A stretch of DNA of 64,000 bases from an uncultured Poribacteria bacterium. GTDB taxonomy: Bacteria; Poribacteria; WGA-4E; WGA-3G. The translations under genes and the position numbers were made by a program. The notes beneath the pieces were generated by a model. It made no database searches, was not told the DNA's origin, and saw nothing but the letters and a program-made list of their open reading frames with translations. Below, in pieces: positions 239 through 59,629 of this stretch. The stretch is taken from contig OX638351.1 in assembly GCA_951813565.1 (NCBI GenBank), positions 4,544,001 through 4,608,000 on the forward strand. The letters are read 5' to 3'. Within the stretch, counting starts at the first letter, position 1, and each line of letters starts with the position of its first letter.

Positions 239-1342
239 TTAGGGAAGTTCAGCATTTGGGGTTTGATCAGGTTGTTCGGAAATCCTTACTTTTTCTTTCA
301 ATTTCTCAATTAATGTAACCAGCTTTTCTTTCAGTTGTTGACGAGAACTGAGTGTTGGCTGCGGCGGCAAGAAAATAGTACCGCGTTCACGCTGTACCCA
401 TCCCTTGATATTATCATCAACTTGGACGAGAAGCCATTTGCTTTCAAGATCAAGATAAACATTCAACAGTCCATCCTCATTTTGGATGTAGTATTTTTGG
501 GTCCCATCAGTAACTCGCCAATTGACATCATTTTCATCAGGAATCAATTTAGCATTTCGCGATAACGGAATTTTCTTAATCACAAATCCCTCGCGCAAGT
601 CTTCAGAAAAGTATCCTTCGGTTAATGCAGTCATGGCTGCTAAATCAGTCTTAAACAGAAACGTCTGAATAGGATACTTAGATTGTTGATATATATTCAA
701 TTGTTTGTTGCCATTTCTAATTTCATAAGTCTGTCGAGACTGATTATCCTTGATCAACCACTGTTTTCCTTTTGTTTCTACGGAGAGTTCTACATCTGCA
801 GAGAGTGTGGTCCTATTAGTGTTAAATGCTTCTTGTAAATTGGGTAGATAGATGTCAAGCGCATCTCCATTTCTTTCAACGCTAAAACCTGCCCCAGTGC
901 TATCCTTAAGGAGCCAATTTCTACCGCTAAGTAGTACCTTAATTGTTGATGAACGCGACCTTAATTTAATTTCTGTGCCTGAATCTGCGAACATTTTCTG
1001 CCAATTAAATACGGTTTTTAATTCCTTGTCCAATACTTCAGAACTAAACCTCGACCGTTGTCCCAGTGCCACACTAAACAGCAATTCATTTGAAAGTTGA
1101 GCACTGTTTAAATTACTAATATACTTTTTGTCAATACTAAAACGGTAGACATCTTTTGTGTATGCAATTGGTTTTGAGTTAACAGTAGGTCTACCGCGTA
1201 TGGCTGTACGCGTGTGTACTTGCAACTTCGGTGGATCTGGCTGTGCAACTGGCGGTGCTTGTAGAATATAAACACAGAAGCAGAAACCGATGATTATGAC
1301 TATAAATAAGAATAAACTTAGGAATTTTAGAGATGATTTCAT
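239..1342 (-). CDS. Membrane-anchored SH3b-like protein interrupted by three copies of a ~70-aa module
   Basis: N-terminal TM helix. SH3b pieces (AIRGRPTVNSKPIAYTK / SKYPI / WLLVQVDDNIKGWV) are separated by repeats ending W-x-[ILV]-x-D...[YF]-x-[IV]...L-x-[IV]-Y. Likely start ATG 1342. Confidence 0.75.
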   Translation of the reverse strand: MKSSLKFLSLFLFIVIIIGFCFCVYILQAPPVAQPDPPKLQVHTRTAIRGRPTVNSKPIAYTKDVYRFSIDKKYISNLNSAQLSNELLFSVALGQRSRFSSEVLDKELKTVFNWQKMFADSGTEIKLRSRSSTIKVLLSGRNWLLKDSTGAGFSVERNGDALDIYLPNLQEAFNTNRTTLSADVELSVETKGKQWLIKDNQSRQTYEIRNGNKQLNIYQQSKYPIQTFLFKTDLAAMTALTEGYFSEDLREGFVIKKIPLSRNAKLIPDENDVNWRVTDGTQKYYIQNEDGLLNVYLDLESKWLLVQVDDNIKGWVQRERGTIFLPPQPTLSSRQQLKEKLVTLIEKLKEKVRISEQPDQTPNAELP

Positions 1343-1521: not shown

Positions 1522-2814
1522 ATGCAAGATTTAAATCCGTTAGCAATTGAACTAAATGAACAGATTCGCGCTGCCTCGCCAGAAGTTTACACGTTACTCT
1601 CAGAATTAGGAAAACGTATTTATTTTCCAAAAGGCATCTTAAGCCAAAGTGCAGAGGCGAATGAAAAAGCTGATCGTTTTAATGCGACACGCGCAGTCGC
1701 ATTGAAAGATAATGAGATAATGCACTTAGGTGTTTCACGTCAATTAGTCTCTGAACTTTCTCCTGAAACCATTTATAACTATGCCTCCGTCCTCGGTGAT
1801 ACAGAATTACGGCAGGCATGGAAAACACATCTTCAAAAAGCAAATCCACTACTTGCAGAAACAACGCTTAGTCTCCCGATTGTAACAAGTGGGATGACGC
1901 ACGGCTTCAGTCTAATCGCGGCTCTCTTTGTCAATAGGGATGACACACTCGTTCTTCCAGACAAAATTTGGGGAAATTATCGACTCATTTTTCAGACTAA
2001 AGCGGGTGCTAATATCCAAACCTACCCACTCTTCAGCACTGATAAGCATTTTAACATCAGTGGATTTAGAAAAACACTCTCTGAGACAACTACCGACAAG
2101 TTGTTGATTCTGCTGAATTTTCCGCACAATCCAACTGGATACGCTATTACGCGTACTGAAGCACAAAAGATAATAGAAGGAATTGTGGCATGTGCTGATA
2201 CCGGATGCTGCATCCTTGTGATGGTTGATGATGCCTACGCAGGCTTATGGTATGACGCAGAGGTAATGCAAGAATCCTTATTCGGTATGTTAGTTGGATG
2301 CCACCCGAACGTTGTCCCAGTGAAGATAGACGGTGCAACCAAAGAAGAATATGCGTGGGGTTTACGTGTCGGGTTTTTGACTTTCGGGTTTCCAGAAAAG
2401 TTGATGCCAGCGATTGAAGGAAAGTTAAGCGGACTAATCCGCGCAAATACCTCAGGTGTGGCGAAGATTTCTCAAACGCTTGTTCTTGAAGCGATGAAGG
2501 CACCAGATTATGCCGAACAAAAACAACTTAACTATGAGATTCTCAGGGCACGAGCAGTAAAAGTAAAACAAGTTACTACTGATGCGCGGTATGCGAATCT
2601 ATGGGAAGTTTATCCAAGCCACGCAGGTTATTTTATATGTTTATGTCTCAAGTCTGGGAATGCTGAAAAGGTGCGGCAAACGCTACTCAATGAATATGGC
2701 ATTGGAACAATTGCCCTTAGCAACACCGAATTGCGGGTGGCATATTCATGTCTTGAAGAAGCCGATATTGAGGATGTATTCAGTGTAATTGCACAGGTTA
2801 TCCAATCGCAATAA
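1522..2814 (+). CDS. PLP-dependent aminotransferase class I/II
   Basis: NFPHNPTG, DDAY and DGATKEEYAWGLRVG motifs (Schiff-base Lys). Confidence 0.9.
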   Translation: MQDLNPLAIELNEQIRAASPEVYTLLSELGKRIYFPKGILSQSAEANEKADRFNATRAVALKDNEIMHLGVSRQLVSELSPETIYNYASVLGDTELRQAWKTHLQKANPLLAETTLSLPIVTSGMTHGFSLIAALFVNRDDTLVLPDKIWGNYRLIFQTKAGANIQTYPLFSTDKHFNISGFRKTLSETTTDKLLILLNFPHNPTGYAITRTEAQKIIEGIVACADTGCCILVMVDDAYAGLWYDAEVMQESLFGMLVGCHPNVVPVKIDGATKEEYAWGLRVGFLTFGFPEKLMPAIEGKLSGLIRANTSGVAKISQTLVLEAMKAPDYAEQKQLNYEILRARAVKVKQVTTDARYANLWEVYPSHAGYFICLCLKSGNAEKVRQTLLNEYGIGTIALSNTELRVAYSCLEEADIEDVFSVIAQVIQSQ

Positions 2815-50237: not shown

Positions 50238-53200
50238 CTAAAATGTGCTCCCAATGCGAAAATAGAAAGAATTTGTTGGCACATCTGGAATTGAGATGAG
50301 AGGTGCGGCATAATCAACTCCAAGCTTGAGAGGTCCGAAGTTTAATCGTAGCCCTGCACCAACCGTGGCCGGCAGCCATTCATACTCAATATTCTCTATT
50401 GTGTCCCATACGTTTCCTGTGTCGAAAAAGAGAACCCCTTGAATTGGGTTAAAAATTGGGAAACTCAATTCGGTATTAAAGATGAACTGAACATTACCAC
50501 GATGTTTTCCGGTACTATCCTTAGGTCCCAGTCCACGCTCTTCATAACCGCGAACTGTGGTACTACCACCTGCCCAGAATCTTTCAAAGGAAATCAATTC
50601 TGCGCCTCGGTCAGTTTGTAAACCAGTGGTAATACCAAATCGGAGTGCGGTTCCTAACACAAGCCCCCATTCATTTAGTTTTCTGTGATATCGTATGTCT
50701 CCTACCGCTTTGATAAAACTGCTTTCTCCCCCCAATAAGGGGCCTCCAGCATATTCGAATGTTGCCTCTTTCAACATGCCTGATGTTGGGTTCAGAGAAG
50801 GTGCTCGAGTATCTTGCCTCCATAATGCACGTAAACTACTAACTGTGGTCTCTGAGAATGCGACTGAAGTATCTTTTAAGTCACGATAACTATATTCTAA
50901 ATTCAGCCTGTGGGCTCTGGATAATTTTCTGCTGAGACTAAAACTACCCTGCAGTGCCCGGACGCCGTCATCTTCTTCCAATTTTCTTCCCAAAAATTGT
51001 AGGCTACCACTTATTCTACCTATGAACCAAGGTTCCGTTAGTGTTGTATCGTATAGGTAGCCGAGTGTTCCCTGTCTGCCCCGTAACCTAAACCGTACAT
51101 TTCGTTTGAAAAGATTGTAATGACTCAGTGCAATTGTGCCGCGAGGACCGTCTGAAGAACCATAACCAACACTTGCACCAATAGCACGCGGCTTTCGTTT
51201 TTGCAGCCGAATTAATACGTCATTGACTACAGGATTACTTGGTTGCTCTTCAATATCTGTTGGAATTCTACGTTCTGGGCGGATTCCAAGTTCAAAAATG
51301 CCTGTATTGTAGAGGTTTTGGATTGCGCCACTCAACTTGTCTTGCGTATAGAGAGTGTCTTCAAGGTGTGCTACCTCACGTTTAAGAACGTTCGAATTTA
51401 CGCCGGTGTCACCATCAAAAAAGAATTTACCAAACGCTATCTGATCACCCTCGTTTACTTCAAACAGTAGGACACCATGTTCAAAAACAGCTAGGTATTC
51501 TTTTTCCTGCTTAAGCGTATAGCGCGCATTACCATCAATATCCTGCATACTCCATTCATCACCTATCTTGGTAGCAATAAACGTACCAGTCAGTGAAAGC
51601 TTGTGTTTTTCAAAAACATCACTTAACTCCTTAGGGAGTACGCCAACATCCAAGAGTTCAGAATAATTGCCTTCTAATAGAAATACTGGATCGTCCATTT
51701 TATTCAGATATTGTGTTTCAACTGTCGCATCAATGTAACCGCGATCTTGATATGTTTTAAGTATTGCGTTTTCAAAATTCTTTTTGACAAGCCGCGCATT
51801 TGGCACTGGGGGTTTGCTTGGTAATACCTCATAGAGAGTGGTAGCATTAAGGACACTGTTTCCACTAAAATGACAATGGAAAATCACTTCTTTGTAGGGT
51901 TCAACAAATGTAAGGTTTATTGAGATTTCTCCAACGTTCCGTTTATTAATGTTCTGTTTTATAATATCGGTTTTTTTTATGGTTAATTTAGGATACCCAG
52001 CTTTTTCATACAAGATTTTTAAACGTTGCGTGTCTCTTGTAAGTGCTTGCTCTGAAAAAAAACGTCTTCTAATGCGGCGAGAGAAAAAATTGGCAGGTTT
52101 AGTTTCCATTTCTTGAAGCAATTCTTCTGCTGAAAATGCCTTATTCCCTGTGAATTTTACGTTTCTTACAATATATCGGGGACCGAGGGTAATAGTAAAC
52201 TTTACATGGAGTGGCGAATTGGTCAATATTTTCCAATCCACTTTAGTTCCATCATATCCTTTTGCTGCAAAGTAATCTTCTACGGTTTCTGTCCAAAATG
52301 GCCGTTTATCCATTATAGATGCAATTTCGTCTCGAAGTTGGTCTCTCTCTCGCTCTTGTTTGATAATGTCTAATTTTGCAAAAAGATTTCGAACAGGGGA
52401 GTCTTGAAAAATAGGTCTCCCGTTCTGATCCACAAAATCAAGTAATAGTTGAATGCCTTCATTTATATTGAACGTCAACACCCCAGTTGTATGTGCAAAG
52501 TCAGGCAAGATTTCAACGTTCGGATAATACTTTTTCTGATAAAGTTCGCGAATTGCGGAGATATCCTCATCAACATCAGATTTGCGATAGACCTTACCAA
52601 TATCGGCACGGCATATCTCTTTGATGTTTTCAGTGAATATAGCTGTATTTCCAAGAATTCGTAATTTTGTGATAGATGTAGGTTTTCTCAAGTTAATCTG
52701 ATATGTTAAACTTCTATCCGATGGAATTGCTTTGACCGCTACATCAACGTTGAAATAGCCGTTTTCAGCACATACTCCCTTAATTGAATCAATATCCTTT
52801 TTGGCAATTATTGGGATATACATTGCTCCCGGTTCTAATTTTATCGCTGTACGGATAGCACGTCTGAGTTCATCAGAAGGTATACCAGTAATATTGATTT
52901 TTTGAATGTGCATTACATTATGTAACTGAAAATTAAGCGCAACCCCTTCAGGTGTCTTTAAGGCATAAACATCAACTTGGGAATACTGTTGTAAGGAATA
53001 TAGTGAAATTACGCTTTGTTGAATAGCATGACGGGAAAACTGTGAACCAACTGCTATGTAGGTTGATTTTTCCAGACTACTGAGAGTCTTATTATCTGTC
53101 ACAGAGTTATTATCAATAAAGTACTCAATTTTAACTACTTTCTTTTCTTTTAACGTTTCACGGGGAGTATCAAGAATTGTAGAGGTGTTGGCAACTTCGC

Positions 53201-53324
53201 CAGAGATCGGTTTTACGGTAAGAACACAGAAAAGGATTAGTAGAAGTCCGAAAAACATGCGTTCCCTAACCGATGCACAAACAGAGAAGGATTTTGGAAT
53301 TTGGTTTAAACACAACTTACACAT
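50238..53324 (-). CDS. tamA: Omp85-family (TamA/BamA-like) outer-membrane protein with multiple POTRA domains
   Basis: Repeated GY/F.GN POTRA patterns, FWAGGSTTVRGY, FFDTGNVW, terminal IGSTF; directly downstream of tamB. Exact start uncertain. Confidence 0.8.
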   Translation of the reverse strand: MCKLCLNQIPKSFSVCASVRERMFFGLLLILFCVLTVKPISGEVANTSTILDTPRETLKEKKVVKIEYFIDNNSVTDNKTLSSLEKSTYIAVGSQFSRHAIQQSVISLYSLQQYSQVDVYALKTPEGVALNFQLHNVMHIQKINITGIPSDELRRAIRTAIKLEPGAMYIPIIAKKDIDSIKGVCAENGYFNVDVAVKAIPSDRSLTYQINLRKPTSITKLRILGNTAIFTENIKEICRADIGKVYRKSDVDEDISAIRELYQKKYYPNVEILPDFAHTTGVLTFNINEGIQLLLDFVDQNGRPIFQDSPVRNLFAKLDIIKQERERDQLRDEIASIMDKRPFWTETVEDYFAAKGYDGTKVDWKILTNSPLHVKFTITLGPRYIVRNVKFTGNKAFSAEELLQEMETKPANFFSRRIRRRFFSEQALTRDTQRLKILYEKAGYPKLTIKKTDIIKQNINKRNVGEISINLTFVEPYKEVIFHCHFSGNSVLNATTLYEVLPSKPPVPNARLVKKNFENAILKTYQDRGYIDATVETQYLNKMDDPVFLLEGNYSELLDVGVLPKELSDVFEKHKLSLTGTFIATKIGDEWSMQDIDGNARYTLKQEKEYLAVFEHGVLLFEVNEGDQIAFGKFFFDGDTGVNSNVLKREVAHLEDTLYTQDKLSGAIQNLYNTGIFELGIRPERRIPTDIEEQPSNPVVNDVLIRLQKRKPRAIGASVGYGSSDGPRGTIALSHYNLFKRNVRFRLRGRQGTLGYLYDTTLTEPWFIGRISGSLQFLGRKLEEDDGVRALQGSFSLSRKLSRAHRLNLEYSYRDLKDTSVAFSETTVSSLRALWRQDTRAPSLNPTSGMLKEATFEYAGGPLLGGESSFIKAVGDIRYHRKLNEWGLVLGTALRFGITTGLQTDRGAELISFERFWAGGSTTVRGYEERGLGPKDSTGKHRGNVQFIFNTELSFPIFNPIQGVLFFDTGNVWDTIENIEYEWLPATVGAGLRLNFGPLKLGVDYAAPLISIPDVPTNSFYFRIGSTF

Positions 53325-53326
53325 CT

Positions 53327-56300
53327 TTAGAAACGCCGCTCCAGTAATTGAATATCTACACCAAATTCGCCTTTTTCATCGCCTTCTACTTTAATGGACA
53401 TATTATTTGGCAACGGATATTCTGCGATGATGTGGCGTTCGTTGGGATCGAGACCAGAGGAAATTGTAAAGGTGATCCCGCGAAATGATCGCGAGAATGA
53501 ATTACCCGGTGAAAGGAGCGCGAGAACATCTGCATCTGAAAAGATCTCGGTTGTGGAGGAATTGAGTGGCTCTGCCCCGAAACTAAGCTTTGCCTTATCA
53601 ATATCGCCATTTTCGAGTTTCCCAATAATAGTTGCAGTTACCTCAAGGTCTGCTGTGCTTCCGTCACTCAGTTGGACACCTGGGATTGGGTTCGGTGTTT
53701 TTAGGCGAATATCTAACTCAGGGTTGAAGGCTGTTTCGTCCGGGTTAGTAATAGTTGAACCCTCATCAATTTCAAAAATCTGCGTAACAATGCTAATTTG
53801 CCCTTTGGGGATAAAAAGGGTCCCTGAGAAAATAGGTCGTTGAATTGGGCCTGTGAGCCGGCCACCTCTACAAGTGATTTCGATGTTGGTAGACCCACCG
53901 GTTGATGAAACTAAATGAAAACTGTTTGGCATATCAATCCCTAAGTTTAACGTAAGATCGCGTAAAATTGGGGCATCAGAAAATAGGTCGGTTTCACTTA
54001 CAGTACGAGCAGTAAACGAGTCCAGTAGGTCCTGCCAGTTCCAATCCTGTCGGTAGTGACCGGAGTAGATTTCAATGTCACCCACCAGAGTTGTCTTTAG
54101 AGTTGTATCAGTAATATTCCCGGATAGATGTAAATTGTCAGCACTTATTTCGACCTGATATCGGTTATTATCGATGAAGGAGGATTTGTCTAAACTTGCA
54201 TTTAGGTCTATTTCATTAACTTTCAACCACTCCGCAATAATTTCACCATTAGCAGAAAAGTTGCCACCATTCAATTGACCGTTAATACTATCGATTGTTA
54301 TTTTTGATTCAGAGAAATCAAACTCAGCATTTGTATCCTGAAAATAAACAGGTGAACGTTTAAATTCAAGGTCTACCGCATTAAATTCACCATCACCTAT
54401 CAGTTGTGGGGCCATTGGCGTGCCACCAATAGTTGCGGTAATTCTGCCTTCACCATTCGCAGATTCAATTAAAGGTTGAATAAGTGGCAAAACCTCAAGT
54501 TCTTCTAATTGAAAGTCAATCTTAATTTCCATTTCCTCTGATAGCGGTTTTGCTTGCAGATTGGAAAAAGAAAGCAGATAAGGCACTCTCGCAGAACAGG
54601 AGAGTCGATTCTCGCCCAATCTCAATAAAGGTGTATTCTCGGAAATTGTCCATTCCTTGTTTGCATAGCTATAACGAAGTTCTACAGTGAATTCGTCAAT
54701 GTTTGCTTGATTAATTCCGAGTTCATGCCCAACAAGCTTGACCGTTACCTCAGGAGCCGCATAAGTGCCTATGATATTGATATTTGTTGATAACATGCCC
54801 TTCTTTTTGAATCTATCAATATATTCTGAAGGTAAAAGTGGATCTAAAATAGAGATATTGAAATTGTCCAATTTTAGGTTAGCAGACATCTCACCTTGCA
54901 TGTTCCATGACCCAAAACAACTGAACACAATAGGTTGCTCGGATACGTTAGCAGGAATTTGAGCAGTATTTTCGAGCTTAAGTCCTTGAACTCTGAATGT
55001 CCCATAATCCAAAGTAATTGGAATTGGTTCCGAATTTTTAAAACTGAATTGTTGATCTAAGACAACAAAACCTAAAGATATGTCATCAATTGAGAATTCT
55101 GCTTTTGTTTTTTGACTAAGCCTATCAAAGGTGATTACTTCGCGTATTTTCGGAATTGGGGTTTTCTCTCCATTTTCAAAGAAACTATCAAACGGTATGC
55201 TCAGTTTTGTAAGCGTCGCCGTAACATTTCCATCCAAATTCGATAACACTTCCTCCGAGATTACTCGCCGTAGGGTTAAACCGAGAGGGTATTGCTTAAA
55301 TGTCAGACCAGCCAACTCAAATCGTTCTGGTGTCAAGCCATCAAGTTGCAATTTGCATTGAGCGAGATTACACGTCCCATCTTCCATATTAAATTGGAAC
55401 TTTGCAAGCTCAATAACATTTTCACGTGCCATGATCTGTACTGTCACGTTCTCAAGCGGTTGCGTGAAACTTTTGGGGCGGAGATGTGGTGCAAAAAGAA
55501 AGACGTTCCCTTTTAAGTATGGGGTGCGCGTTGTGCCTTGAAGTGTCAAATTAATATCCGTAACGCCTTCCGCTTCCGAAAAGATATTATCAAGCCATGG
55601 GAAAAAAGTGAGCGGAAGTTCCTTTCCGGTGAGTTGCACATTTATTGGCGCATCAATGAAACGTTCTGAGATGTTTAAATTTGCAAAAGACAAATCAAAC
55701 GGAATCATACCGTTGAGTGTTAATATGTTTCCATTATTCGTAAGTTCAATTCTATCCAATTTAATCTGTTTGTCTGCATATTTAACATCTCCCTGCCACT
55801 GTAGGAGCGATTCTGTTTCTTTCTGCAACAGGTGATTCAATGTTCCTTGCCATTTTGCGGATATGTTTGGCGTAGTAAATGGTCCATCAAAATTAACATC
55901 AACTTTAGTTTCCATAATAGAAGAGCTGACTTGCAAAGGCAGAAGGGAAGTAATGTTATTGTTATGTAATTTGAAGTCTATGGGTGAGGTGTTAGAAATT
56001 TGATGGTTATATGCTTGAAGATTGAGTTCATCTATCTTGCAAGTCGCTTCCATAAGCGCCGAGGTAAAACCTGTTCCGCTTAACTTAGCTGCTCCCGACA
56101 AGGTTCCGTGTACAGGTGACGGGCGTTGTAGAAACAAATTTGCCAAATCTCCTATCTCCAGTTCCTCCAGAGATATATCCATATCAAAAGTGGTTTTGTC
56201 TCTATTTCGGGTTGAAAACAAAGTTTCGCCATTTATCTGAAAATCGCTTGTTCCAATCTGCCCACTGGTAAGAAAGTTCTGTATTTGTACCGCTTCTTCT

Positions 56301-59300
56301 CTAATAGTAGTTCGGGCGTGCAGTTTGTCCAATATAATTGGTTTAGCAAACGCGCCAAAGTGAATAGGTTGGTTTTCAGTTGTCCGTGCGTTTAGATCAA
56401 AAATTGGTTCAGCAATAGTTCCAGCCACATTTAGCGAAACACCGACTTTTCCTTGAATTAAGGCAGATTTGTCAAAGGATAGGCGTTTTACTGTCTCAGC
56501 AGGCATACTGTTCCTAACCATGTGTGAAAAATTCAATAAATTGAGACTTGGAGCACTGAGGTTAAAGTTCAGTTTTGAATTGTTAAAATCGTCAGGATTG
56601 ATTGCTATATTCCCATCTATCCCGAATAAATTTTCCAAGACCTGTATTGAAAATGGTTTGATGTGTAAGGTGTTATTTTGGTATTCTATTTCACCGTTCG
56701 CATCACTTATACCAATATCTCCTATATCAGTCTTCACAACTAACGTTGATACCTTCCATTTGAGATCAACGATAGGATCGGTCAAAGTTCCCCTCGTCTT
56801 CAATTCATATTGTGCAGTACCAGAAATCGGAAGTCCTAATGCTGTGCCAAAAGATTCCAAGGCTAAATCTTGGTTGTGCTTGGAGGCAATGTCAATTTCC
56901 TTAGTTTTGGCATCAATAGTGCCGATAAGTTGAATGAATGGCGTGTTTTCACCCGCCACGGATAGTGAACTGTCAGAAATAGTGAGTATGTCGTTTTCTA
57001 ATTTGAAAAGCATCGGCTTAAGGTTGGTGAAGCGCAACACATTGTATTGAAGTTGTGTCTTGTTAATAACTATGTCAACATCATAAGGGTATACACGTTT
57101 TTTAGAAGGTCCAACGAGTTCTGAAATTGTGCCTTCTACTTCAACAGTGCTATCAACAGTGCCAGTAATTACATCAAGTGCCGGATGAAAAATGCGCAGA
57201 ATGGGTGAAGCTGCTGTTTCTTTACTCTTCAGGGTAAACTTGTATGGATTAGGGAGGGTATTACTGATTGTGCCCTCAATGCTACTTGTACCTTCAAATG
57301 CTTTTCCCGTAAATTTGAAATGATTTTCTTGTTCTATGAGGACACCATGCAAATCTGCATCACCAAGCGGGTTGCCTTCAAATGTTAAATCAGAAAAGTC
57401 AAAATTTACTTCAAAAACAAAATCTCTCTGCTTTTTTTGGTGTGAAACCATGTTAATATCCATTTTGCCATCAAGCGGAAAATCGGCAATGCCCGCAGCG
57501 CGTGCAAGTTCTGTCAATTGAACTGGTCTGTCCGGACTATTTTTTAGGCTAAAATCAAAGTCTCCATTGTTTCCTACATGGGCGTTGAACGTAACTACTT
57601 GACCGCGCGTTGTTATCACAAAATTGGGAATAGTAAGAGAGTAATCATCAATCTTTAACTCCAATGTTGCAGGATCTAAATTCATGCTCCATGCGTTTCC
57701 AGAATCGATGACAAAATTACCGCTGCCATCAAGATGGTCAATGAGTTGACCGTATAAATTTAATTCTCCTTTTATATTACCTTCAATAGGGTACTCTGCA
57801 ATAAAAAAGAGTTTGTTATAGTCAGCATCCAGCACAAGCGGTTCAGCGACGATACGAAAATTAGTGGATAATTTATCCTCTAAACTGATATTGCCCTCTA
57901 TGGAAACGTTGGTATTTCCGTTCTCACCTTCTTTTGTTAGGTGTGCATTTTCAAAATACACAACCCGATCTACGTACCGAAAATTCCCGGTTAAACGACC
58001 AACTGGAATTGGATCATTATCGCTGCGCCGATAGAATGCCTCAGGTATCTCTGCATATCCATTGGCAGTGCCGTCTTTTTTTATTTTTGCAGTAATGCTT
58101 CCAACACCTTCAAAGGGGATAGAGTTGAAAATTTTAGATAGTTTTCCAAAGTCAACATTTCCAAGTTGGACATCAAGACTTTCATAGGAGCCACTAATGT
58201 CAACTTTTGTGTCATCTATGATGCCATCTATACTTACATTTGAGCCGTTCGTGTTTTCTGCAGAAATTTTATAATTCAGAGATGAATTTTTTAATGGTAT
58301 AGATTCGTTTTTTACAAGAAAACCTGTATCTGAAAGTTTTACATTGCTATCAAGGTGAAACTTGCCTGTTGTATTACCGTTTATTAGCGCTGTGCCTGTT
58401 AATGTCCCAGATTCGATTTGCGGTATCTGTTCTGACAACTCCCCGAACATTGACAATAGTGAATAGAGCTGAATATCCGATATTTGCCAATTACTGTCGT
58501 AGGTGATGGGCTGTTTTATAAAGTGCTGTAATCGTTCAATCAAATTCCCCTCGGAAGTATTCTTAAATGTAGCACTGCCGCTTCCTGTGAGTGTTCCGTC
58601 AGCGATCTGTGCACTAAATTTATCCAACGTTACTTTTGGAACTTTCTCTAAATTTATGGTAGTGTCAATCGTTAGGTCTGAAATATCTATTTGTCTATTT
58701 TTAGATTTAGATTCATAACTTTCCTTGATTGAGAAAGCGTCCGATGTGCCAGTGAGTGTGCCGTTTAAAGTAGAATCAGTTCCCTTTAAATCCAGTACAA
58801 TTACGCCTGAACCTCCAAGTTCAATATTGTCACCAAGAAATTTTTGGACATCTGAAGCATCAATTGTCATTCCTGCGTATACTTCCCATGCATTAGCCTC
58901 CCAATTTCCCTTCATGGTCAAAACTGAATTTCCGAATTTAAGTTTGTGTTCGGGTAGATCACCACCTATTGTTGACACAGAAAACTCTATTTTTTTCAAT
59001 GGATCAATAGATAATTTTGTTCCATTCAACGTGAAACTACCCTGATTAAAAGAAACGTTACCCGTGTGATTCCAATCATCTAACGAACCCCCCAGTTCCA
59101 GTTTTATATTTGGGAGTTCCAGTTCAATGTTCTGCTGTGTATCCGTGAAAACAATCTTACCTTCATTGATTTTAACATTGGATACGGCAAAAGCGAAGGA
59201 ATCAGTTGAATCAGGCGGCGGCTCAGATTCCCGAAGTACCTGAGTTAGGTTTACTTGTCCTGCCGCATTTCGCTGCAGGTTTACCTCTGGAGAGTCGATC

Positions 59301-59629
59301 TCTAACGCAGTTACAAGAAATTTGCGTTGTAGCAGGGCAAAAAAGTTATATTTTAGGGTTATCTTTTTTGTAGAGAATATTGGTGATGTTTCGGATTCTT
59401 TTTCTTTTACCGATAAATTCTCAATTTCAACGCCAGTGAAAATATTCCCGCGCAATTTTTTGAGTTGGATAATGTATTTGTCGTCAATCTGGTCTTGTAA
59501 TACATCTTTAAGGCGAGTTTTGACGAAATTATTAAGAAAAGAGTCTGAACGGACATAGAAAAATCCTCCGACTCCTAAAAGAAGGATTATTAACGGTATT
59601 GAAATTAATAAAATTTTGCGTCTTGTCAT
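53327..59629 (-). CDS. tamB: TamB/AsmA-like translocation and assembly module protein (2100 aa)
   Basis: N-terminal TM anchor, repeated G.....P...G beta-taco segments, DUF490-like C-terminus (FNPELDI, DVLALL). Confidence 0.82.
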   Translation of the reverse strand: MTRRKILLISIPLIILLLGVGGFFYVRSDSFLNNFVKTRLKDVLQDQIDDKYIIQLKKLRGNIFTGVEIENLSVKEKESETSPIFSTKKITLKYNFFALLQRKFLVTALEIDSPEVNLQRNAAGQVNLTQVLRESEPPPDSTDSFAFAVSNVKINEGKIVFTDTQQNIELELPNIKLELGGSLDDWNHTGNVSFNQGSFTLNGTKLSIDPLKKIEFSVSTIGGDLPEHKLKFGNSVLTMKGNWEANAWEVYAGMTIDASDVQKFLGDNIELGGSGVIVLDLKGTDSTLNGTLTGTSDAFSIKESYESKSKNRQIDISDLTIDTTINLEKVPKVTLDKFSAQIADGTLTGSGSATFKNTSEGNLIERLQHFIKQPITYDSNWQISDIQLYSLLSMFGELSEQIPQIESGTLTGTALINGNTTGKFHLDSNVKLSDTGFLVKNESIPLKNSSLNYKISAENTNGSNVSIDGIIDDTKVDISGSYESLDVQLGNVDFGKLSKIFNSIPFEGVGSITAKIKKDGTANGYAEIPEAFYRRSDNDPIPVGRLTGNFRYVDRVVYFENAHLTKEGENGNTNVSIEGNISLEDKLSTNFRIVAEPLVLDADYNKLFFIAEYPIEGNIKGELNLYGQLIDHLDGSGNFVIDSGNAWSMNLDPATLELKIDDYSLTIPNFVITTRGQVVTFNAHVGNNGDFDFSLKNSPDRPVQLTELARAAGIADFPLDGKMDINMVSHQKKQRDFVFEVNFDFSDLTFEGNPLGDADLHGVLIEQENHFKFTGKAFEGTSSIEGTISNTLPNPYKFTLKSKETAASPILRIFHPALDVITGTVDSTVEVEGTISELVGPSKKRVYPYDVDIVINKTQLQYNVLRFTNLKPMLFKLENDILTISDSSLSVAGENTPFIQLIGTIDAKTKEIDIASKHNQDLALESFGTALGLPISGTAQYELKTRGTLTDPIVDLKWKVSTLVVKTDIGDIGISDANGEIEYQNNTLHIKPFSIQVLENLFGIDGNIAINPDDFNNSKLNFNLSAPSLNLLNFSHMVRNSMPAETVKRLSFDKSALIQGKVGVSLNVAGTIAEPIFDLNARTTENQPIHFGAFAKPIILDKLHARTTIREEAVQIQNFLTSGQIGTSDFQINGETLFSTRNRDKTTFDMDISLEELEIGDLANLFLQRPSPVHGTLSGAAKLSGTGFTSALMEATCKIDELNLQAYNHQISNTSPIDFKLHNNNITSLLPLQVSSSIMETKVDVNFDGPFTTPNISAKWQGTLNHLLQKETESLLQWQGDVKYADKQIKLDRIELTNNGNILTLNGMIPFDLSFANLNISERFIDAPINVQLTGKELPLTFFPWLDNIFSEAEGVTDINLTLQGTTRTPYLKGNVFLFAPHLRPKSFTQPLENVTVQIMARENVIELAKFQFNMEDGTCNLAQCKLQLDGLTPERFELAGLTFKQYPLGLTLRRVISEEVLSNLDGNVTATLTKLSIPFDSFFENGEKTPIPKIREVITFDRLSQKTKAEFSIDDISLGFVVLDQQFSFKNSEPIPITLDYGTFRVQGLKLENTAQIPANVSEQPIVFSCFGSWNMQGEMSANLKLDNFNISILDPLLPSEYIDRFKKKGMLSTNINIIGTYAAPEVTVKLVGHELGINQANIDEFTVELRYSYANKEWTISENTPLLRLGENRLSCSARVPYLLSFSNLQAKPLSEEMEIKIDFQLEELEVLPLIQPLIESANGEGRITATIGGTPMAPQLIGDGEFNAVDLEFKRSPVYFQDTNAEFDFSESKITIDSINGQLNGGNFSANGEIIAEWLKVNEIDLNASLDKSSFIDNNRYQVEISADNLHLSGNITDTTLKTTLVGDIEIYSGHYRQDWNWQDLLDSFTARTVSETDLFSDAPILRDLTLNLGIDMPNSFHLVSSTGGSTNIEITCRGGRLTGPIQRPIFSGTLFIPKGQISIVTQIFEIDEGSTITNPDETAFNPELDIRLKTPNPIPGVQLSDGSTADLEVTATIIGKLENGDIDKAKLSFGAEPLNSSTTEIFSDADVLALLSPGNSFSRSFRGITFTISSGLDPNERHIIAEYPLPNNMSIKVEGDEKGEFGVDIQLLERRF

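Follow-up and report, generated by a model that had tools for sequence, protein, structure and literature searches.

Inteins are selfish inserts that lie in frame in essential proteins and spread by homing. Rickettsia palindromic elements (RPEs; Ogata et al. 2000, 2002, as summarised in PMC10969869 and PMC3184786) are short dispersed repeats, palindromes of ~105-150 bp, that lie in frame in unrelated genes and are translated; the passages dealing with them in these two sources mention neither a target duplication nor a mobilising transposase. ERIC, BOX, BRE and Anabaena MITEs are non-autonomous elements described there as providing ORFs that are fused in frame with host genes (PMC10969869, PMC3184786), and the stability of such fusions is called not known in the passage concerned (PMC3184786).

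The stretch of DNA analysed here, referred to as the window, comprises 64,000 nucleotides of contig OX638351.1 from an uncultured Poribacteria bacterium (GenBank assembly GCA_951813565.1). A preliminary description of one of its genes reported a module inserted into the encoded protein and proposed that it is a mobile coding element resembling RPEs, a view that profile similarity, insert-free orthologs, the SH3b model and the DNA ends now support. The module is very probably the translated relic of a non-autonomous transposon (MITE) of the IS66 family, ISBst12 group, that has become a self-nesting folded domain; the IS66 link and the recursive nesting are what the present analysis adds.

Results

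Host gene and SH3b domain

The host ORF encodes 367 aa and holds three copies of a ~71-aa module, one of them within another, distributed over two loops of an SH3b domain (Table 1). That an SH3b domain is left when the copies are taken out, as had been claimed, was borne out by orthologs and model alike. Both junctions could be aligned to two insert-free orthologs from other families without gaps (AYAQ/QGTKLEI/LSTEGDW compared with AYTK/QQSKYPI/LDLESKW in the window protein, slashes marking the junctions). Pfam SH3_3 (cut-off 27) scored 33.4 bits with an insert-free ortholog and 26.0, just below, with a second one; no SH3_3 match is obtained with the window protein itself because of the inserts. 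In the AlphaFold model of the host protein (pLDDT 75.7), residues 36-328 still give an SH3b barrel although the inserts are present, and this region matches 3pvq_A (Z 8.2, rmsd 2.9, 62 aligned) and 4krt_B (Z 7.9, rmsd 1.6, 58 aligned). A Foldseek search with the full host protein gave no match at E 0.001 or better.

Positions 200-1400 of the window are covered without a break by DNA contigs from two studies, either of which may be the source of the assembly. A contig from an RNA library (213 bases, depth 2.6), which may be DNA, crosses the junction between host and outer copy unchanged, with no joint seen. The host gene adjoins a divergent aminotransferase-like gene (window 1522-2814, named from sequence alone), and the neighbours of two insert-free orthologs examined differ from the latter.

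Module copies in the window

The copies were scored with an independent profile, built from 137 library copies among which neither this genome nor any ortholog of the window protein was represented. The rejoined outer copy gave 73.1 bits, the inner copy 27.9, the third 60.5 and a fourth, in a BamA/TamA-family gene, 37.6, and the best of 200 shuffled controls per copy reached 6.0 bits or less. The preliminary description had placed all four, including the nested one, correctly to within 1-2 codons. Its attribution of the fourth copy to TamA stands for the copy and not for the gene, which scores best as BamA (TIGR03303, 269 bits, below the cut-off of 297) and encodes 5 POTRA stretches. This gene adjoins one for a 2100-aa AsmA/DUF748 (TamB-like) protein (window 50238-59629).

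Residues 94-142 of the inner copy are modelled with pLDDT under 50. The copy is 8 residues above the consensus length, in the region where the ortholog in genome G161 has a fourth copy, and the extra residues are possibly the scar of a lost innermost copy.

Table 1. Features of the host locus, with further module, IS66 and MITE loci. Positions are those of the window unless a locus is named.
Feature	Position	Strand	Remarks
Host gene	239..1342	-	N-terminal membrane anchor, split SH3b domain, C-terminal helix
SH3b domain, first part (residues 37-65)	1148..1234	-	ends in decayed left target copy of outer insertion
Outer module copy, N-terminal part (residues 66-86)	1085..1147	-	
Left duplication of inner insertion (SNE)	1093-1085	-	last three codons of outer N-terminal part
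Inner module copy (residues 87-165, 79 aa)	848..1084	-	nested at module position ~21
Outer module copy, C-terminal part (residues 166-218)	689..847	-	
Right duplication of inner insertion (LPN)	from 847	-	first three codons of outer C-terminal part
Middle SH3b strand (QQSKYPI) and two junction residues	662..688	-	
Third module copy (residues 228-296, 69 aa)	455..661	-	folds alone, pLDDT 92.7
SH3b domain, C-terminal part (residues 297-324)	371..454	-	
Fourth module copy	51483..51689	-	POTRA region of BamA/TamA-family gene 50238-53324
Intact single-ORF IS66 element	L229, L231, L232, L242, L243, L248, L251, L253, L255, L256		
Young MITE loci	L184, L186-L188, L190, L213-L227		genomes G124, G112, G031, G091, G136

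Nested, empty and filled sites

A search with the N-terminal flank found the host ortholog in 97 of 99 other genomes of the source family, in frames of 354-406 aa with the exception of one broken copy. All three module copies are kept in the 38 full-length orthologs that were aligned, 21 from the genus and 17 from the rest of the family; the window insertions are ancient and fixed, not recent. Short orthologs (137-172 aa) occur in 6 genomes of three other families, and the inserts are absent from the five that were inspected. The order of insertion is read here from presence patterns: the P0051 ortholog has the outer and third copies only, that of P0019 has all three, and in that of G161 (L263:1387-2841) a fourth copy lies within the inner one, which makes a nest three deep.

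Excision and rescoring showed 18 of 226 full copies to be nested in another one, at module positions 16 to 66, three of the 18 being at the site used in the window. Alleles with one, two and three copies occur in the EMC6_arch family, where the filled site reads EEK-module-EEK and the empty allele a single EEK; the name of this host family suggests that the module may also be present in archaea.

Distribution in the genome, family and phylum

A profile of the four window copies, the search that the preliminary description had proposed, detected 11 copies in the source genome with E values under 0.001, which fall in 9 of its 60,801 six-frame ORFs, and three weaker ones. In addition to the host protein, the carriers are AspRS, an O-antigen ligase, a YibE/F protein, a histidine kinase, a VWA protein, a DUF4861 protein, a protein without Pfam match and the BamA-like protein; of the weaker copies, one is a further, partial copy in the VWA protein and the others lie in sigma-54 and a poly(A)-polymerase/CCA-type enzyme. 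These proteins are unrelated, and cytoplasmic, membrane and periplasmic ones are among them. The sigma-54 copy (L005:2036-2311) is a degenerate one of 92 aa; since the corresponding position in P0144 is occupied by a clean nested pair, the degenerate copy may be a partly decayed nest.

At E up to 0.001 the profile matched 1,914 library representatives; of the best 150 of these, 91 were scanned and 55 had Pfam domains, of very different kinds. Module matches were present in 145 of 151 genomes of the phylum. The number of copies per genome is steady by family, at least 7-13 in the source family and at least 18-23, 11-22 and 4-9 in others, and 40 copies were counted in genome G153. Many of the copies occur in proteins of contractile systems, namely baseplate-J, tail and TssG-like ones (P0059, P0126, P0152, P0140, P0016, P0018, P0032 and P0035). 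A single-copy query run against genomes of all species returned 2 Poribacteria loci; two weak Nanopusillus matches from the same scan, at 29% identity, were taken as chance. A viral scan produced 32 pattern matches, none of which matched the DNA profile of the module.

Ends of the element and target duplication

Conservation of the consensus begins and stops sharply at 71 codons. In 38 non-orthologous copies from three slowly evolving genomes, whose copies agree in a single DNA consensus even at synonymous sites, the 9 bases on either side of the 71 codons had an identity of 0.453, compared with 0.281 after shuffling (z 7.3), and z was 2.4 or less at 13 other shifts from 2 to 15. At the protein level, flank identity at shift 3 was 0.157 vs 0.071 (z 6.8, 127 library copies). 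The signal was weak in two more distant genomes (z 2.1, 8 copies). The base at -1 was G in 17 of the 38 copies, against 78 of 342 other third positions (p 0.002), and residues unable to end in G were depleted there (19/127, p 0.0009); from this excess and this depletion, a duplication of 8 bp and an element of 214 bp starting with G were deduced. A scan of metagenomes, with a pattern containing neither the G nor the duplication, gave three loci, all with the G. The duplication was perfect in one (L181; 8/8, with a mismatch at base 9 and terminal repeats complementary at 11 of 13 positions) and 7/8 in another, and the third, a nested copy, had no clear duplication.

The consensus ends of the 38 copies, GTTACTGTTTAGC and, reversed, GTAAA(C/T)GTTTAGT, constitute terminal inverted repeats. 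Shared ends or palindromy had been put forward as features to look for at the boundaries; the former are present, as short inverted repeats flanked by the 8-bp duplication, and the element as a whole does not appear palindromic. The consensus has no long internal inverted repeat, folds as RNA at -35.9 kcal/mol over 213 nt, a value without a shuffled control, and has stops in all five other frames. Unrelated copies in three genomes shared the same codon at a rate of 0.51-0.56 vs 0.38 after shuffling, neighbouring-base effects being uncontrolled; in the source genome the values were 0.400 and 0.369, not significantly different.

At the four junctions of the window the duplication has decayed, with 2-3 of 8 matches, no better than chance. 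The G161 ortholog retains 6/8 at the outer site, 5/8 plus the G at the inner one and 0/8 at the innermost, so that its four sites read 6/8, 5/8, 4/8 and 0/8. Across the orthologs seen, the third site has two extra residues instead of three; at the outer site the number is two, three or four and varies with lineage. The DNA-profile matches in the source genome (E below 0.01; 13/13) and in 30 other loci (38/38) are in-frame gene copies throughout, with no non-coding or off-frame copy among them, and none of 111 inverted-repeat pairs in the source genome had a duplication of 6/8 or better.

IS66 partner and young MITEs

The ends of IS66 elements begin GTAA as a rule. In other Poribacteria, an intact insertion sequence of 1537-1561 bp, which carries one 480-aa PF03050 (IS66 transposase) frame and has the ends GTAACTGTTTAGT, could be delimited at 10 of 30 loci; the duplications are 8/8 in nine of these and 7/8 in one. 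Genome G037 has 13 transposase matches, and the element has apparently been active recently. The ends of the module are identical to the repeat of this IS at 11-12 of 13 positions; the mean agreement of the two module ends with it is 8.8 and 8.7 of 13, compared with 3.4 +/- 0.8 for 438 other windows of sequence. The right-end match is partly circular, since the MITE family was discovered by searching with the right-end motif; neither the left end nor the length of the duplication is affected by this. The left end of the module differs from that of the IS by A>T at position 3, which converts an in-frame TAA to TTA (Leu). In the part of PMC12898284 that describes it, ISDge4, an active element of the ISBst12 group, has similar ends, with a non-A at position 3 of one of them, and an 8-bp repeat. 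Another IS66 element, in G036 (L233:1305-3328), apparently has ends starting with GTTA, and a 6/8 flank match; such ends occur naturally.

The same ends as in the IS are found in young non-coding MITEs of another Poribacteria genus. These MITEs are abundant, measure 135-339 bp, have several different interiors and are flanked by perfect 8-bp duplications, in 19 of the 24 pairs listed at 6/8 or better in 15 regions. End-motif matches numbered 88-390 per genome in five genomes, vs 32-43 in controls, and in a scan of 176 genomes were near control level beyond one genus. PF03050 was detected in 9 of 176 genomes of the phylum, and in neither the source genome nor any of 111 others of its family; an IS66 search of 5 genomes returned one fragment with non-matching ends. 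The module interior shows no DNA or protein profile similarity to 10 IS copies, nor any similarity to the young MITEs. By this comparison the module is not an internal-deletion derivative of the IS, with which it has the ends alone in common.

The module as a protein

Modelled alone, the third copy adopts the order strand-helix-helix-four strands. The end motifs of the element encode conserved hydrophobic strands, the first and the last of the fold, and the conserved positions of the module are its hydrophobic core. In 26 related, non-independent pairs, dN/dS was 0.19 for the outer, 0.20 for the inner and 0.31 for the third copy, compared with 0.23-0.27 for the host parts.

That the module belongs to no named family and lacks the Cys/Ser...His-Asn ends of inteins, as first described, agrees with the database searches and with the termini of the copies, which begin L/F-L-F and end N-I/V-Y. 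Among 78 copies, no Pfam family occurred in more than 3 members (best E 0.0066), and PHROGs gave single weak matches only; Pfam and NCBIfam yielded nothing recurrent for the module in the window protein and single copies, and the best match among PDB sequences had E 0.14. Inhibitor_I48 and DUF3806 were rejected as the module family, each being a single weak, non-recurrent overlap in one protein. A fold search of 48,161 chains gave at best Z 3.8 (rmsd 3.0, 54 aligned), and Foldseek a best E of 0.83; the lack of a clear match does not imply fold novelty. In the ESM Atlas no feature match was obtained for two copies, and the best structure row was an unnamed cluster at TM 0.62. A literature search, covering the main text of mostly open papers, found no published description of the module.

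Discussion

The identity of the ends points to an IS66-family transposase that would have acted in trans on the module element. As we picture it, a 214-bp element with 13-bp terminal inverted repeats would have been mobilised by an enzyme of the ISBst12 group, each insertion duplicating 8 bp of target and adding 222 bp (74 codons), so that the frame of the host is kept. The first base of the element completes the last host codon, and 71 codons follow in the sole stop-free frame, in which the left end has TTA in place of TAA owing to the A>T change at its position 3. Since the 71 residues fold by themselves, copies in frame in surface loops would have left the host working and been kept, and others would have fallen into the loops of earlier copies, building nests up to three deep. 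Copies elsewhere would have been purged or have decayed. The burst is old, and the copies of the source family are now fixed, presumably as passengers, and selected to stay folded, in host proteins that probably work with the insert; the module itself probably has no function of its own.

Ordinary domain shuffling, the spread of an old domain by illegitimate recombination or gene conversion with end motifs that are just the codons of conserved beta-strands, would suit the hydrophobic strands encoded at both ends, the lack of non-coding copies in the source genome and 30 other loci, and the partial tandem copies that occur, for instance, in the VWA protein. It gives no reason to expect that unrelated flanks are duplicated over a fixed 8 bp, that an extra G is present, that the length is fixed at 214 or that both ends are identical with an IS repeat; the perfect duplication of L181 and the EEK-module-EEK of EMC6_arch vs the single EEK of the empty allele largely refute it, and we consider it very unlikely. 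It is just as doubtful that the MITE was moved by another DDE family such as the IS4 subgroup ISPepr1. Elements of that subgroup, as a passage of PMC2266710 describes them, have 7-8-bp repeats and the ends YT-AA-YTT---A, a partial fit, and no IS66 element was found from which the module interior derives; the module ends, however, deviate from this signature in two places, positions 1 and 7, and agree with the IS66 repeat of Poribacteria. Removal of the insert after transcription or translation, in the manner of an intron or intein, would give a mature host protein free of the module and would sit well with essential carriers such as AspRS and sigma-54. Such removal is scarcely credible, given the missing intein end residues, the purifying selection on the protein sequence of the module and an SH3b domain predicted to fold with the inserts in place; the RNA-library contig across the host/outer junction argues weakly in the same direction, as it may be DNA.

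Other proposals are compatible with an IS66-type MITE and concern its origin and function. Whether the interior was captured from an existing gene, as in a cargo-carrying MITE, and not derived from non-coding DNA seems nearly balanced to us, leaning slightly against. It is unlikely a priori that 190 bp of non-coding interior would happen to fold well, and the interior is unrelated to the IS; against capture, searches of Pfam, NCBIfam, PHROG and PDB sequences found no donor, and the terminal repeats themselves encode the first and last strands. We put forward more tentatively a domain born from transposon DNA, in which a non-coding MITE opened its frame by the one base change in its left repeat, took on a new globular fold whose edge strands the terminal repeats encode, and owing to that fold spread as a permanent selfish domain, nesting in itself, through essential proteins of the phylum and probably archaea. 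Exaptation of the module in some hosts, for binding or stabilising, is rather unlikely. An ortholog in 97 of 99 family genomes, with three copies throughout the 38 aligned, and a module dN/dS like that of the host parts are in its favour; insert-free orthologs exist, however, the conserved positions are those of the hydrophobic core, and the carriers, being cytoplasmic, membrane and periplasmic, have nothing in common, for which reason a tolerated passenger appears likelier than a shared function. Exact loss would need a rare in-frame deletion, and this alone would explain retention.

Domain insertion is a major route of protein evolution, and its DNA mechanism is seldom visible. Here its traces are preserved: terminal repeats, an 8-bp duplication, relatives in which the partner transposase is still intact, and alleles that are empty or hold single, double or triple-nested copies. 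The mechanism is made testable as an IS66 transposase and a 214-bp substrate, the insert sites show, as a natural map, which loops tolerate 74 additional residues, and the module, a candidate de novo fold, accounts for many Poribacteria proteins being oddly long or escaping annotation. The idea behind RPEs, one of short peptides, thereby comes to include a folded domain that selection maintains in essential enzymes.

The host domain is the same as the known bacterial SH3b domains (Pfam SH3_3, SH3_4), by the Pfam match of the insert-free ortholog and the structure matches, and differs from them in that its 55 residues bear about 225 insert residues in two loops. Inteins and the module both lie in frame in essential proteins, whereas the module has ~71 aa, no splicing residues, and transposition with target duplication. 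Compared by description only, RPEs and the module are alike in their in-frame insertion into unrelated genes and their conserved translated peptide; unlike RPEs as these are summarised in the passages cited above, the module element has short terminal repeats, an 8-bp duplication and an IS66 partner, and the module has a predicted globular fold of 71 aa, nests in itself and spans a phylum. From the MITEs with ORF fusions it is set apart by fusions that are fixed across genera, under purifying selection and in essential proteins. With the ISBst12 group of the IS66 family, as exemplified by ISDge4 in the part of PMC12898284 describing its ends, it shares the terminal repeat signature and the 8-bp duplication; unlike IS66 elements, it has no transposase, an unrelated interior and a frame that is open from end to end.
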